A stretch of DNA of 64,000 nucleotides, from contig CALUQE010000001.1 in NCBI GenBank assembly GCA_944322845.1, positions 46,099 through 110,098 on the forward strand. The letters run 5' to 3'. A model generated the notes under the pieces. That model worked only from the letters and a program-made list of their open reading frames with translations. It had not been told where the DNA came from and ran no database searches. The translations under genes and the position numbers were made by a program. Shown in pieces: positions 14,428 through 58,489 of this stretch. The stretch is from Candidatus Gastranaerophilales bacterium. GTDB lineage: Bacteria; Cyanobacteriota; Vampirovibrionia; Gastranaerophilales; Gastranaerophilaceae. Position 1 is the stretch's first letter. Each line of letters starts with the position of its first letter.

Positions 14428-15468
14428 ATGCCAATAGAAGGATTTGATTATAAAACGTTTGCAGCGTCTATGTCAGAACAGGCAAAAGAACTTGTTCCGG
14501 CAGACTTGAAGGATCATGAAAAAGAGTATATTGTAAAAACTCTCGGCAATTTTACACTACTTGCAGGTGAAGCGCTTTATAATGATACGCAGTTAAATCT
14601 GACTGTGGATCAAGCTGTTTTTATAACTCAGGTTATTGCAGAGTGGTCGTTTCATAAATCAATAGACTTAATTCATTCAGGAATTCTTCCGCAGTACTGG
14701 GATAGTATAATGCAGAAAATTGCATTTACCATCTTTGAAGTCGCAAAACAGGCCGTTATAAGAAAGATTCCTCAGGATCAGCTCTTACAGGCGGTGGAGC
14801 ATCACGTAATAAAAGTTTATAACGCAAGTATTGAAGAGCTTCAGAAAAAGGGTATTATTGACGAAGAAGTTAAGAACCGCGCTGAGAGTCAGTCAAATAT
14901 TGATGCTATGGCAAAACAAGCGCAGGAAGAACAGCAGCGCCAGAAAATGGCTGCTGCGGAAGAAGCGGAAAAGAATCTAAGAGAGGCGGAAAAACGCAGA
15001 GAAGAAAAAAGAAATAAGAGAAAGCAGGAAAAAGCTCTTGCTTCTATGCCTCAAGGTATCAGTAATAAACAGATGAAGCTGATGACGCTCGCTCTGGTTC
15101 TCAAGATTCTTTCTCAGGATAAAGTTACAACAATACTTAATAAATTTGATTCAAATGACTCACTGGCGATTTCACAGTATATGAATATGGCGGATTTGGA
15201 ATCTCACATTGACGGAGACTTAATAGCCGGATGCCTTAAGGAGATGAAGGAATATCTGCCGATAAAAAAGAAGCTTACAAAAGAAAATGTACTCGGTGAT
15301 TTGCTGAGAATTTACAGAACAACACCGAGAGAGCAAGTGGAAAGAGTTATCAAAAATGAGCGGCCTCTGGTAAAAAGGTTTATCCTTCAGTCATATGACG
15401 GAGAATATTCCGATTTGCCGCTGAGGGTAGCCGGTATTGTTGCACAATACATTGAAGAGAGTGTATAA
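14428..15468 (+). CDS. Protein with an unknown N-terminal domain, a coiled coil and a FliG-like armadillo segment
   Basis: KLMTLALVLKILSQDKVTTILNKFDSNDSLAISQYM resembles the FliG N/M helical repeats. It is the first gene of an operon with fliH and flhA. Confidence 0.5.
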   Translation: MPIEGFDYKTFAASMSEQAKELVPADLKDHEKEYIVKTLGNFTLLAGEALYNDTQLNLTVDQAVFITQVIAEWSFHKSIDLIHSGILPQYWDSIMQKIAFTIFEVAKQAVIRKIPQDQLLQAVEHHVIKVYNASIEELQKKGIIDEEVKNRAESQSNIDAMAKQAQEEQQRQKMAAAEEAEKNLREAEKRREEKRNKRKQEKALASMPQGISNKQMKLMTLALVLKILSQDKVTTILNKFDSNDSLAISQYMNMADLESHIDGDLIAGCLKEMKEYLPIKKKLTKENVLGDLLRIYRTTPREQVERVIKNERPLVKRFILQSYDGEYSDLPLRVAGIVAQYIEESV

Positions 15469-15477
15469 TAAAAGCAA

Positions 15478-16266
15478 ATGATAATAAAGAAAAACAGTCA
15501 AAAATTCAGGGAGGTAAGGAAAAAAGGTTTTGAGCCGGCTGGTTTCGAAGAACAGCCGGAAGATTCTTCTGCAGTTTTAAAAGAAGAGCAGCTTTCCGGC
15601 GAACAAGAAGATGATGAAGAAGAAGATGTGCCGGCTCCTGTCGAGAATTTACCTAAAGAACCTGAAATTGATTTATTCGATATAGAAAATATTGATTTTA
15701 ATCAGCGTCAGGAAAGACGAAGAGGTTCCCGCAGAAGAGGGTACAGAAGGATTGATGATAGGAATCTGGTTTCCCGTGCGCAGGAAGAAGCTGAAAATAT
15801 AAAAAAATCCGCTTTTGACGAGGGCTACAGAAAAGGGCTTGAACAGGCAGAGGCCGATATGGCTGCGTTCAGAAAAGATATTGCAGGATTTATGAATGCA
15901 ACAAAAGATGTTTTTGAGTATATAGCGCCTGATATTTTGGAAATTAGTGTTGATATTGCTAAAAAAGTTATAAAGAAAGAAGTTGAAACAGATCCTCAGG
16001 TTTTAATTAATACAATTGTGGATGTACTTAAAACTCTGACCAAAAATGAACCCAAAATCAATATAAGAGTTAAACCTCAGGCTGTTCAATTTATAAAAGA
16101 TACGATTCCGAACATAACATATCAATACGGTATTGATGCAAAAATTAATATTGTTGCGGATCCATCCATTGAAGAGGGCGGATGTGTTTTTCAGACAAAT
16201 AACGGGATTGTTGATGCTTCTATTGACACTCAGGTAGAAATCATTAAAAAAGCTTTAGAGGGCTAG
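15478..16266 (+). CDS. fliH: FliH/SctL family export-apparatus stator protein
   Basis: AQEEAENIKKSAFDEGYRKGLEQA (GxxxG repeats) and C-terminal ADPSIEEGGCVFQTNNGIVDASIDTQ. Confidence 0.85.
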   Translation: MIIKKNSQKFREVRKKGFEPAGFEEQPEDSSAVLKEEQLSGEQEDDEEEDVPAPVENLPKEPEIDLFDIENIDFNQRQERRRGSRRRGYRRIDDRNLVSRAQEEAENIKKSAFDEGYRKGLEQAEADMAAFRKDIAGFMNATKDVFEYIAPDILEISVDIAKKVIKKEVETDPQVLINTIVDVLKTLTKNEPKINIRVKPQAVQFIKDTIPNITYQYGIDAKINIVADPSIEEGGCVFQTNNGIVDASIDTQVEIIKKALEG

Positions 16267-16306
16267 GGAAAAATATAAAAACAGCAGTAAATTAAGAAAG
16301 GATGTA

Positions 16307-18397
16307 ATGGCGGCAGAAGGCGGCGGAAATAAACCAATAAGTGAAATTTTCTTAGCATTATTCGTGATGACATTGATTTTAATTCTCATTATCGAGATGC
16401 CGAATTGGGTTATCAATTTTTCCATAAGCTTAAATATTACTCTCGGTATTGTACTTTTGATGATATCCCTGTACGTTCAGAAACCTCTTGAACTAGCGGC
16501 ATTTCCGTCTATTATTCTTTTAGGTACAATGTTCCGTCTGGTTCTTTCTATTGCATCAACACGTCTTATTCTTGCAAAAGGTGACGCAGGTGAAGTAATT
16601 CACGCTTTCGGGACATTCGTAACCGGCGGAAATATGATTGTAGGCGGTGTTATCTTCCTTATTATTACAGTCGTTCAGTTTATGGTAATCACCAAAGGTG
16701 CCGAACGTATTGCGGAAGTAGCAGCCCGTTTCGCCTTGGACGCAATGCCCGGTAAGCAAATGACAATAGATGCGGACTTTAACGCCGGATTAATATCACC
16801 GGAAGAAGCGGTCAAGAGACGTGAGGATTTACAAAGAGAATCAAGTCTCTTCGGTTCTATGGACGGTTCTATGAAGTTTGTAAAAGGTGATACTATGGCG
16901 GGTATCATCATTGTTATAATTAACATTGTAGGCGGTTTGATTATCGGGTGTCTTGTTAACCAGATGCCTATAGCGGATGCGGTTACAAAATATACGGTAT
17001 TAACAATCGGTGACGGTTTGGCATCACAGCTTCCATCTCTGCTTATGTCAATAGCTGCCGGTATCGTTATGACACGAGCTTCTGCCGGTAACAATTCTCT
17101 GGGCGGAGATTTAACCGCACAGATAATGTCAAAACCATACTCTCTGTTTTTTGCGGCAATATTCTTAGGTTTAATTACAATCACCTGTCCTATAACAGGG
17201 CTGCCGTTCCTACCGTTTCTATTGTTTACAATAATTCTTGCTGTTGCAGGCTTCTCTGTATTAGTTAACGCAGACGTTCAATCACAATTGGGTCAATTGG
17301 AAAGCGTACGTCAGAATATGCAGGATTTGGTTAACCCGAACAAGATGTACGAAAGACTTGGTGTTGATGTATTGAGTTTACAGGTTGGTGCCGGCTTGCT
17401 TGTAATTGCCGATCCTGATCAAGAAGGTCAATTGCTTGCCAAAATTGCTGCTTTACGTCAAAGAGTTACCGACGAATTAGGTTATATTCTGCCGAATATA
17501 CGTATTATGGACTCTTCAGCCTTGGAAGCTAATGAATACGTGATTTCTATACGTAATAACGTTGTTGCTTCCGGTTATGTATATCCGGGAAAATATATGG
17601 TTATTGCTGATCAGTGGGATGCTGTTAAAAAGACTATTCCGGAAGATGCAATTGTTGGTGTTGATCCTACTTACCAGACTCAGGCTTACTGGATTTCCGC
17701 TGAAGATGCTAAAGCAACCAAAAACGTTACGGCTGTTGACGCAACGGATGTTCTTGTTACACATCTTCAGGAATGTGTAAGAAAACACGTAGATGAAGTT
17801 ATGACAAAAACAGACGTTCTTAAGCTTATGGAACTTGTTCGTTCTCAAGACCCGACTCTTGTTAACGACCTAGTTCCTGCAATTATTTCAACTTCTGATT
17901 TGAGAAAGATTTTTGTTAACCTTATCAGGGAAAAAGTTTCTATCAAAGATATTATATTTGTGTTCGAACGTCTTTGCGATTATGCAAGGTTTTCAAAAGA
18001 GCCGGATATTCTCTCTGAACGTTTGAGGGCTGCCCTCGGGCGTCAAATATGTTTGAATAATGTTGACAGAGACCACGTATTATATGCGTTAACCCTGTCT
18101 CCTGAGTGGGAAAAAACTCTTGATGACAGCTGTCAGAGAACAGAGCTCGGTACAATGTTCCTCTTAAATCCAATGCAGGTTCAGGATTTGATTGAATCTA
18201 CGGCAATGACTCTTATGCGTGCGCACCAGTCAATCGGGCAGCAGCCGGTAATTTTGTGTTCTCCAAGAATAAGACTTCCGCTGTACCAGCTTCTTGAACG
18301 CCATATTCCTACTATTGTTGTAATTTCATACTCTGAATTGATTACTGATATTAAGGTTGAAGCGGTCGATACGATAGGCGATACATCCGGTTATTAA
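16307..18397 (+). CDS. flhA: FlhA/SctV family type III export gate protein
   Basis: AERIAEVAARFALDAMPGKQMTIDAD, GSMDGSMKFVKGD, 8-TM N-terminal domain and C-terminal VVISYSEL. Confidence 0.93.
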   Translation: MAAEGGGNKPISEIFLALFVMTLILILIIEMPNWVINFSISLNITLGIVLLMISLYVQKPLELAAFPSIILLGTMFRLVLSIASTRLILAKGDAGEVIHAFGTFVTGGNMIVGGVIFLIITVVQFMVITKGAERIAEVAARFALDAMPGKQMTIDADFNAGLISPEEAVKRREDLQRESSLFGSMDGSMKFVKGDTMAGIIIVIINIVGGLIIGCLVNQMPIADAVTKYTVLTIGDGLASQLPSLLMSIAAGIVMTRASAGNNSLGGDLTAQIMSKPYSLFFAAIFLGLITITCPITGLPFLPFLLFTIILAVAGFSVLVNADVQSQLGQLESVRQNMQDLVNPNKMYERLGVDVLSLQVGAGLLVIADPDQEGQLLAKIAALRQRVTDELGYILPNIRIMDSSALEANEYVISIRNNVVASGYVYPGKYMVIADQWDAVKKTIPEDAIVGVDPTYQTQAYWISAEDAKATKNVTAVDATDVLVTHLQECVRKHVDEVMTKTDVLKLMELVRSQDPTLVNDLVPAIISTSDLRKIFVNLIREKVSIKDIIFVFERLCDYARFSKEPDILSERLRAALGRQICLNNVDRDHVLYALTLSPEWEKTLDDSCQRTELGTMFLLNPMQVQDLIESTAMTLMRAHQSIGQQPVILCSPRIRLPLYQLLERHIPTIVVISYSELITDIKVEAVDTIGDTSGY

Positions 18398-58284: not shown

Positions 58285-58430
58285 CTTACGTCCTTTCGAA
58301 ACTTTGAGATTCGGGCATAATATTTTGAATATTTTGTTATGCTCCTTTTATTTATGCGGGTTTTAGCCGCTTTTTTCTGCTCCTGTATTGTTATTAAATC
58401 TTACGTCTTTTCAGCTCCTTGAGAGTTGAA

Positions 58431-58454
58431 ATAACATTTTATTCATAATGTTAT
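58431..58454. promoter_or_regulatory. ATAACATT-N8-AATGTTAT palindrome upstream of the giant gene
   Basis: ATAACATTTTATTCATAATGTTAT; same length and arms as the 27869-27892 core. Confidence 0.65.
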
Positions 58455-58461
58455 ATGAATT

Positions 58462-58489
58462 ATTACGGCTAATTTGAATAAAAACTTTA
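58462..58489 (-). promoter_or_regulatory. Sigma28/FliA-type promoter for the giant gene
   Basis: Minus strand TAAAGTTT-N12-GCCGTAAT; the spacer is 1 bp longer than consensus. Confidence 0.55.

Follow-up and report, generated by a model that had tools for sequence, protein, structure and literature searches.

Members of the Gastranaerophilales are uncultured bacteria common in the guts of humans, primates, rodents, ruminants and poultry, and the reason why most of them carry half a flagellum has been a standing question since 2013. The genes flgG, flgC, fliF, fliH, flhA, fliI, flgE, fliP/Q/R and flhB were common to four Melainabacteria genomes, and MEL.A1 showed no filament, cap, junction or L/P rings (Di Rienzi et al., 2013; PMC3787301). 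In the supplementary table of Soo et al. (2014; PMC4040986), most other Gastranaerophilales keep FlgB/C/F/G, FlhA/B and FliE/I/J/P/R and are devoid of FliC/D, FlgD/E/H/I/K/L, FliM/N and MotAB. Flagellin, hook, hook-associated proteins, MotAB and FliM/N are absent from approximately 75% of the genomes of the order (10.64898/2026.04.24.720558, PMC4040986), and a secretory role for the partial flagellar sets has already been postulated (Murai et al., 2026 preprint; 10.64898/2026.04.24.720558). Here, a 64-kb stretch of chromosomal DNA (approximately 37% G+C) of a Candidatus Gastranaerophilales bacterium, contig CALUQE010000001.1 positions 46,099 to 110,098, hereafter the window, was analysed. It shows a fliH-flhA cluster and three promoter sites of the sigma-28 (FliA) class, two of them in front of genes encoding giant proteins without signal peptide. 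The published partial sets belong to the same order and comprise the same genes (flhA and fliH, with fliE/fliF in relatives), but they were described as gene presence/absence only; the promoter class, its conservation and the candidate regulon members are new here, and no paper naming both FliA and Melainabacteria was found in the literature searched.

The window contains exactly three matches to the pattern TAAAGTTT-N10-13-GCCG, at 27829 and 43019 on the plus strand and at 58466-58489 on the minus strand, versus 0.04 expected; the excess is about 75-fold, and none of 100 shuffles gave as many as three. All three are intergenic and oriented in the same direction as the next gene, in agreement with the three FliA-type promoters proposed in a first-pass annotation of this DNA. 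The sites and the genes behind them are:

27829..27855, plus strand: promoter 1 of the sigma-28 (FliA) class, TAAAGTTT-N11-GCCGTTAT, assigned by consensus and by conservation before the giant family
28061..28345, plus strand: small partner open reading frame (ORF), 94 aa from an ATG with a ribosome-binding site, listed as 28031-28345, no Pfam match
28359..31586, plus strand: 1075-aa multi-module protein without signal peptide, C-terminal half formed by two copies of a module of approximately 265 aa
43019..43045, plus strand: promoter 2 of the sigma-28 class, TAAAGTTT-N11-GCCGATAA, perfect match to the enterobacterial consensus
43090..43245, plus strand: 51-aa protein behind promoter 2, with a good ribosome-binding site and, downstream, a hairpin and then tRNA-Ser
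58462..58489, minus strand: promoter 3 of the sigma-28 class, TAAAGTTT-N12-GCCGTAAT, consensus match
49564..58284, minus strand: 2906-aa protein without signal peptide, between tRNA-Ser and dxs in a strain-variable segment

The two giant genes placed behind these promoters by the first reading were found at sites 1 and 3, encoding the 1075-aa and the 2906-aa proteins, while site 2 is followed by the 51-aa ORF and then by tRNA-Ser. The terminator of the upstream gene (27760-27783) precedes promoter 1. Compared with a 16-base consensus (A/T allowed at -10 positions 5 and 8, boxes 11-12 nt apart), the three sites show 0, 0 and 1 mismatches, and promoter 2 corresponds to the enterobacterial (Escherichia coli) FliA consensus (PMC4183435). 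When up to three mismatches were allowed, all the remaining matches but one showed two or three mismatches, and their total was that predicted by chance. The sole further match with one mismatch (22595-22622) is antisense inside the phosphofructokinase (PFK) gene and is taken as chance. No sigma-28 motif was found before the core (class-2-like) flagellar genes, either in the window or in relatives, as a late-gene hierarchy would predict. Since the pattern was picked after the sequence had been read, the comparative argument is the stronger one.

For this comparison, the DNA around six diverged relatives of the 1075-aa protein was inspected (loci L087, L089, L090, L124, L125 and L126). The intact motif is present before family members in L087 (26% identical protein), L090 (33%), L124 and L126; L089 (50% identity) shows the single-base variant GTCG, and the sequence of the L125 contig starts within the -10 box, so that only the cut end of the box is visible. 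In these relatives, the motif is located 34-86 nt upstream of the first start codon of the operon. The motif scan in relatives that the first-pass annotation had proposed thus places it before six diverged members of the giant family, two of them with weaker evidence. Because the motif is kept before proteins down to 26% identity, it is a conserved promoter rather than a chance match, and the near-unchanged 27-nt upstream signal, beside coding sequences diverged to 26% identity, reads as the phylogenetic footprint of a real promoter. The idea that FliA-type promoters drive the giant genes is likewise sustained by the motif kept before 1075-aa family members whose identity has fallen to 26-50%. 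Both the promoter class and the membership of these genes in the regulon are, on this comparison, highly probable. Comparison of promoter 3 shows an identical sequence in five strains of the same species, which is uninformative on selection.

Approximately 10 independent sites were found in about 0.4 Mb of Gastranaerophilales DNA, versus three in about 1.4 Mb of flhA loci of other phyla, and two of these three pattern matches are in proteobacterial loci. In L018 and L013, the motif precedes an operon encoding a GAF-HD-GYP protein and an alpha/beta hydrolase, which is located upstream of the flagellar core cluster at a distance of a few kb at most; in L013, the motif of this operon is the CAAAGTTT variant. 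Other genes preceded by the motif in relatives are a REC-HD-GYP gene, a 72-aa ORF and an SLT-like gene. The HD-GYP regions are:

L013, 1712-3951 and 20510-21800: HD-GYP (cyclic di-GMP, c-di-GMP, phosphodiesterase-type) regions with the motif
L018, 4132-6260: HD-GYP (c-di-GMP phosphodiesterase-type) region with the motif

The same boxes could be read by a SigF-type group-3 sigma factor unrelated to the flagellar apparatus, in which case the link to flhA/fliH would be coincidental and the genes would belong to a regulon for stress or surface functions. In cyanobacteria, pili and surface proteins are controlled by group-3 sigma factors related to FliA, the promoters and the flhA cluster of the window are not contiguous, and no FlgM was detected, all of which speak for such a factor. 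However, both boxes and their spacing, and not just a group-3-like -10 box, fit the flagellar FliA consensus (PMC4183435), and the motif drives an operon near the flagellar core cluster in L018 and, as the CAAAGTTT variant, in L013. A SigF-type reading is therefore regarded as improbable.

A further conserved box accompanies the promoters of the giant family. In the window it is:

27804..27814, plus strand: upstream box TTTGTAACAAT, 14 nt upstream of the -35 element of promoter 1

The box, with the general form TTTGTAACAA(T), is located 10-15 nt upstream of the -35 element in the window, L087, L089, L090 and L126, and its tail is visible at the start of the L124 contig. An UP-like element and an activator site are candidate roles for it. 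Related TTTGTAAAT repeats precede promoter 3.

The operon at site 1 consists of the 94-aa ORF and the 1075-aa gene. Homologues of the partner ORF, 36-44% identical, precede the giant gene in L089 and L090; an ORF of 101-110 aa occupies the partner position in L087, L125 and L126, and L124 shows a 93-aa ORF 3' of the giant. That the small partner acts as a chaperone would be a guess. The two module copies of the 1075-aa protein span residues ~501-762 and 813-1075 (window ~29859-30644 and 30795-31583). The module carries a conserved DCPYGTGNN motif and is usually C-terminal in family proteins of 400-1700 aa. An AlphaFold2 (AF2) model of the module (eight copies) reached a predicted local distance difference test score (pLDDT) of 86.3 and a predicted template modelling score (pTM) of 0.88, and its comparison with PDB and BFVD by Foldseek gave no relative (best E 1.1, TM <0.25). 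Searches of PDB sequences with both giants and with the module profile returned nothing. A flagellin-like fold of the module was considered and rejected, with no match by structure or by profile. The exhaustive HMMER pass found 87 clusters of the family among 1.84 billion representatives, and a word search of 5.8 billion proteins found six clusters. The 1075-aa family is small, fast-evolving and largely or wholly confined to this lineage. BLASTP between the 1075-aa and 2906-aa proteins gave no sign of paralogy. No hydrophobic N-terminal signal was seen in four family members, the calls of signal segments in the giants being made by reading of their N-termini; by the same reading, the N-termini of both the 1075-aa and the 2906-aa proteins are without hydrophobic segment, as had been claimed for two giants without Sec signals. 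Locus L087 carries fliP, fliR and flhB at 6-9 kb from the giant gene, on the opposite strand and with unrelated genes between.

The 51-aa protein behind promoter 2 is indexed, as an exact sequence, in 106 blocks of the collection. Its ORF shows about a dozen DNA differences among related loci, every copy of which encodes the same protein, and the -35 and -10 boxes of promoter 2 are invariant in four related loci. The protein gave no Pfam match and is neither FlgM- nor CsrA-like by Pfam; its DNA differences show the mark of strong purifying selection. Two other orphan ORFs of the window, for which a flagellar affinity had been suggested, did not hold up. The ORF at 33215-33568, described as FlgM-like, gave no match to PF04316 or to any other Pfam or NCBIfam model at E up to 10, and no FlgM match among PDB sequences. 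The ORF at 26121-26489, described as rod/hook-helix-like, gave no match to Flg_bb_rod or Flg_bbr_C, nor any in Pfam, NCBIfam or PDB sequences with E allowed to reach 10; in the positive control, flgC of L013, Flg_bbr_C was recognised with this library. Neither ORF shows a sigma-28 site.

The 2906-aa protein shows matches to LysM (residues 358-405), a RamC_N kinase-like domain (2238-2365) and FHA (2523-2563), together with G-box-like beta repeats near the N-terminus, which contains no hydrophobic signal segment. Of the LysM/annexin/lyase content attributed to the giants by the first-pass annotation, only LysM was recovered, in this protein; no annexin or lyase domain was found. LysM binds peptidoglycan, and its presence suggests an extracytoplasmic destination for the protein. 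Strains with identical Dxs carry alleles of this gene encoding 2902, 2906, 2555 and 1637 aa. The whole segment from tRNA-Ser to dxs (43399-58576) differs among close relatives, the window having approximately 13 kb extra that include the 2906-aa gene: L092 and L093 show ogt and a gene encoding a 207-aa protein directly next to dxs, with no giant between, and L091 shows cheR and a gene encoding a 305-aa protein after the tRNA. This is island-like behaviour beside a tRNA gene. No orthologue of the 2906-aa protein was found in a scan of Joint Genome Institute (JGI) metagenomes, which gave weak repeat matches only.

The leaders behind promoters 1 and 3 contain the palindrome ATAACATT-N8-AATGTTAT, whose family form is (GC)ATAACATT-N8-AATGTTAT(GC). 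Three copies were found in the window versus zero expected, each within the leader of site 1 or of site 3; from the -10 box to the start of the first copy there are 3-4 nt at site 1 and 7 nt at site 3. The leader elements are:

27859..27902, plus strand: leader stem-loop of site 1, with a 20-bp stem, -19.8 kcal/mol, z -6.95
28010..28040, plus strand: second leader palindrome copy of site 1, -12 kcal/mol, z -4.3, approximately 20 nt before the ribosome-binding site of the small ORF
58431..58454, minus strand: leader palindrome of site 3, 7 nt after the -10 box, with a weak RNA fold

L124 shows the same palindrome 3' of its promoter (63-86), and in L126 the corresponding position is occupied by a hairpin with another sequence. 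The elements are polymorphic among strains as insertions or deletions: in runs X3 and X4, 40 other bases take the place of 27857-28010, the breakpoint coinciding exactly with the -10 box end, and L100 is devoid of the second leader element of the 2906-aa gene, a 47-nt hairpin near the ribosome-binding site. These hairpins are probably 5'-terminal stem-loops modulating mRNA stability or translation, and an operator or a miniature mobile palindrome is possible.

The other component of the arrangement is the flagellar gene cluster, which contains three genes, spaced 9 and 40 nt, with all three ORFs intact:

14428..15468, plus strand: 346-aa protein in the FliG slot of the flagellar core operon; relatives that keep fliF have it between this gene and fliH
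15478..16266, plus strand: fliH, regulator/stator of the export ATPase FliI (PF02108, E 2.4e-24)
16307..18397, plus strand: flhA, flagellar type III export-gate protein, full length (PF00771, E 1e-216)

FlhA (FHIPEP) covers profile positions 2-656 of 657 in PF00771 and 2-678 of 678 in TIGR01398. In NCBIfam it scores 698.7 bits as FlhA (TIGR01398) versus 585.4 bits as SctV, both values being under the curated equivalog cut-offs. For 15478-16266, the NCBIfam scores of the FliH and SctL models are similar and all below cut-offs, and the two families are not separable. By its higher FlhA score and by its synteny with fliE and fliF (also with flgC in L013, and with fliI in L013 and L018), the gate protein is placed in the flagellar rather than the injectisome lineage.

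The 346-aa gene, fliH and flhA are kept together in all 12 related species fetched. In 10 of the 12, two ORFs stand immediately ahead of the trio, one fliE-sized (104-126 aa) and one fliF-sized (543-571 aa); the named loci with ORFs of 104-126 and 552-571 aa in this position are L007, L009, L010, L012-L014 and L017, and in L007 these ORFs were identified by Pfam as FliE (PF02049) and FliF (PF01514 and PF08345). L018 shows a 543-aa ORF at the fliF position and no fliE-sized ORF before it. L013 contains, ahead of fliE-fliF, flgC and an SLT transglycosylase gene, and in L013 and L018 fliI (449 aa) is directly 3' of flhA. In the window and in L016, BioG/BioC are upstream of the trio instead of fliF, and tblastn found no fliE, fliF or fliI anywhere in the window. 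Since relatives have fliE-fliF ahead of the trio where BioG/BioC stand here, the cluster is best described as the distal piece of a conserved core operon split by rearrangement. The first-pass annotation had reported an isolated fliG-like/fliH/flhA cluster: fliH and flhA were confirmed by Pfam, but the cluster is the distal end of the relatives' fliE-fliF-X-fliH-flhA rather than isolated, and FliG applies to X by position only. RNA-labelled chicken-gut runs consist of low-depth contigs and show no read ends from which transcription starts could be placed. The DNA of the window is present in a chicken-gut run, for the most part with at least 99% identity, and contigs of this sample match fliF of L007 at approximately 85% identity, with a depth like that of the contigs of the window organism. 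Other Gastranaerophilales are also present in the sample and the owner of these contigs is not provable, so that they provide only hints of a fliF elsewhere in this genome.

That the flagellar genes are functionless, decaying relics and the promoter-like sites chance matches would agree with the broken cluster, with BioG/BioC in place of fliF, and with the interpretation of the partial set of MEL.A1 as ongoing genome reduction (Di Rienzi et al., 2013; PMC3787301). Against it, flhA is full length, and its product is 79-97% identical across the 12 species; the three ORFs are intact; and the motif count, about 75-fold above expectation, goes together with conservation beside proteins as low as 26% in identity. 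Strong purifying selection acts on flhA, and the 79-97% amino-acid identity of FlhA, versus 34-82% for the neighbouring 346-aa protein, fits a functional gate and not decay. FlhA and FliH are very probably functional, and decay is considered very improbable.

The 346-aa protein occupies the FliG slot in L007, L009, L010, L012-L014, L017 and L018 as well. The fliG-like label given to it was not upheld beyond this position: no Pfam match to FliG_N, FliG_M or FliG_C was obtained with the whole protein, its halves or the 12 orthologues, each scanned singly at E up to 5, which leaves 13 orthologues without a FliG domain. Three of the 13 orthologues show weak matches to MgtE_N (best E 7.5e-4), a family which we take to be in the same Pfam clan as the FliG domains. 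A profile of the 13 orthologues found no FliG among PDB sequences. The AF2 model of the protein, from a shallow alignment (members at least 85% identical), has a pLDDT of 63.5, below 50 in the C-terminal half; its N-terminal part is a five-helix bundle modelled with confidence, which is followed by a charged linker and by a C-terminal helical domain of poor model quality. With this weak model, Foldseek returned only designed helical repeats (E at least 0.02) and no FliG. FliG identity was supported neither by Pfam nor by the PDB profile nor by AF2 with Foldseek, and the protein is a positional analogue of FliG, FliG only by position.

Downstream of flhA, an 81-aa ORF (18592-18837) is directly 3' of the gene; its position is kept in L001-L003, L007 and L016, it gave no family match, and it might be a small export-apparatus accessory. 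The DNA 3' of flhA differs among strains with identical FlhA: L001 shows a resolvase and helix-turn-helix (HTH) pairs, and L002 a gene encoding a NERD-domain protein.

In the one-genome-per-species collection, the FlhA relatives at 79-97% identity are metagenome-assembled genomes, mostly labelled Candidatus Gastranaerophilales, Melainabacteria or Vampirovibrio, the remainder having clearly erroneous bin names or no taxon label, and after this Gastranaerophilales set the best FlhA match falls to 45% identity. An origin in Chlamydiae or Legionella, suggested by G+C content and by the orphan flagellar genes, was rejected from the taxonomy of these relatives. The exact FlhA is present in many gut metagenome assemblies.

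Taken as a whole, these observations are best accounted for as follows. The intact X-fliH-flhA operon is the distal part of an order-wide (flgC-slt)-fliE-fliF-X-fliH-flhA(-fliI) operon, cut from fliE/fliF by rearrangement. By sequence and comparison, the window also holds a FliA-class regulon, formed by the operon of the small ORF and the 1075-aa gene, the gene encoding the 2906-aa LysM/FHA protein and that encoding the 51-aa protein, with no flagellar parts among its members. A FliA-type sigma factor encoded elsewhere would turn on this regulon in the manner of late flagellar genes; given the conserved motif, a fliA gene is very likely present in the genome. Some or all of the signal-less products could then exit through the retained gate (FlhA/FlhB/FliPQR with FliH/FliI), and the reduced apparatus would serve as a protein secretion device, rather than or besides a motor. 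An apparatus of this reduced kind agrees with the gene-content tables published for the order. This combined explanation, whose export step we infer, is favoured by a narrow measure. Export of the giants through the type III secretion system (T3SS) of the flagellum, proposed from their lack of Sec signals, the LysM domain, the small partner ORF, the promoter class and the conserved gate, is by itself rather unlikely. Less probable still is the wider proposal that, in the non-motile gut Gastranaerophilales, a reduced core of MS ring, rod, gate and ATPase forms a dedicated secretion machine whose FliA-controlled late substrates are the fast-evolving, lineage-specific giant family, with its hitherto unseen fold, and strain-variable giants such as the 2906-aa LysM protein. 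If true, it would represent a second, independent conversion of a flagellum to export, in a widespread human and animal gut commensal and with the sigma-28 checkpoint still attached.

Several points weigh against the proposed secretion device. The 64-kb window contains no fliA, flgM, fliI, fliPQR, flhB or rod genes, and a sigma-factor domain was detected neither in the window nor in the flanking DNA on both sides nor in 10 candidate ORFs around the flagellar cluster of relatives. Between the giant genes and the flhA cluster there is no linkage. The comparison of promoter 3 is limited to one species, no orthologue of the 2906-aa protein having been found in others, and FHA and kinase-like domains are typical of cytoplasmic signalling proteins. 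The FliA regulons of flagellated bacteria, such as E. coli and Legionella, also hold non-flagellar genes. Finally, the sister strain represented by L091 has cheR near the 51-aa gene, and close relatives may for this reason be chemotactic and fully flagellated.

One alternative is an ordinary flagellated bacterium, with a full flagellar and chemotaxis set elsewhere in the genome, a normal class 3 FliA regulon, and giants that are intracellular or leave by another route. The cheR gene beside the 51-aa gene in the sister strain favours it, as does the motif before HD-GYP genes in relatives, c-di-GMP phosphodiesterases being FliA targets in enterobacteria, and the FHA and kinase-like domains suggest a cytoplasmic role. 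Complete flagellar sets are found in approximately 25% of Gastranaerophilales genomes (10.64898/2026.04.24.720558), and MEL.B1, MEL.B2 and ACD20 were reported as complete for flagella (PMC4040986, PMC3787301). On the other side, neither the 64-kb window nor its flanks, covered over 10 kb on the right and 2.5 kb on the left, contain a flagellin, hook, motor or chemotaxis gene. The fliI gene is not beside flhA, as in published non-flagellated genomes, whereas both are adjacent in ACD20, L013 and L018, and a LysM domain without signal peptide is hard to square with a cytoplasmic life. An ordinary flagellum is a minority possibility, behind the combined explanation given above. Secretin, needle and translocon genes were not seen.

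The rest of the window contains genes encoding tryptophanyl-tRNA synthetase, a pyrophosphate (PPi)-type PFK, agmatinase, endonuclease III, RNase E/G, Dxs and BioC/BioG, and two tRNAs, which were the only elements found by an Rfam scan; numerous ORFs without family assignment are interspersed. Beside tRNA-Asp, an ORF encoding a HigB/Gp49-like toxin (20046-20435) is accompanied by an HTH antitoxin-like partner (19757-20053). At the left end, an 864-aa protein (1824-4418, minus strand) with a weak match to the autotransporter passenger repeat (PATR) adjoins a 175-aa ORF (1300-1827), which in related contigs gives a faint match to outer membrane protein beta-barrels; both may form a surface protein pair unrelated to the sigma-28 promoters. 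Approximately 1.5 kb past this end, L127 (11443-12480) encodes a 345-aa protein with an ADP-ribosylating exotoxin domain (PF03496), which has no obvious signal peptide, adjoins a SprA-related gene and shows no sigma-28 motif upstream. A long intergenic stretch (41540-42140), locally high in G+C and without Rfam match, contains several strong inverted repeats: TGTTATGC-N4-GCATAACA at 41825-41844, and GC-rich hairpins near 41795, 41875 and 41975. Within this stretch, related contigs call a 78-aa ORF.

The conserved FliA-class signature provides a concrete handle for genome-wide scans in the order, together with a first list of regulon targets: orphan giants with a new domain, a constrained 51-aa protein and, in relatives, c-di-GMP phosphodiesterases. 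A vague secretion idea is thereby turned into testable candidates. If the giants are exported, this would be a natural case of a flagellum on the path to a secretion system, and it would supply unknown proteins directed at the host or at microbes; should export not occur, this would still be the first sigma-28 regulon that we found described for the non-photosynthetic sister lineage of cyanobacteria.

Among known systems, Yersinia YplA and Campylobacter Cia/FlaC have no Sec signal, use the flagellar T3SS as their way out and share regulation with flagellar genes; these systems differ in their complete flagella and small cargo. Chlamydia retains sigma-28 without a flagellum and uses it to control non-flagellar genes. 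In Legionella oakridgensis, FliA and FlgM outlast the flagellum and act on non-flagellar targets through a promoter of the TAAAGTTT-N11-GCCGATAA type (PMC5655016). L. oakridgensis shows no basal body or export gate, whereas the gate is conserved here. We know of no cargo or sigma-28 regulon in Buchnera aphidicola, and Gastranaerophilales, unlike Buchnera, are free-living gut bacteria with genomes of approximately 2 Mb. The likeness to B. aphidicola is in the basal body and export apparatus kept without filament in a reduced genome, for which a transport role is suspected (PMC8109811). The injectisome is also a secretion system evolved from the flagellar export core (PMC3459982); unlike it, the gate of the window scores higher as FlhA than as SctV, and the relatives have fliE, fliF and flgC, not genes of the sctC/sctF type. 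The nearest parallel to the proposed export is the flagellar T3SS of Lysobacter, where flagellin is absent, the T3SS genes are expressed, and fliI and flhB are needed to secrete non-flagellar toxic proteins (PMC7688988). In Lysobacter, secretion was shown by experiment and concerns enzymes of ordinary size, whereas the candidates here are giant orphans with a sigma-28 promoter link, known from sequence alone. Reduced flagellar systems and the idea of secretion through them are thus already known, and what this locus adds is the promoter signature and its targets.

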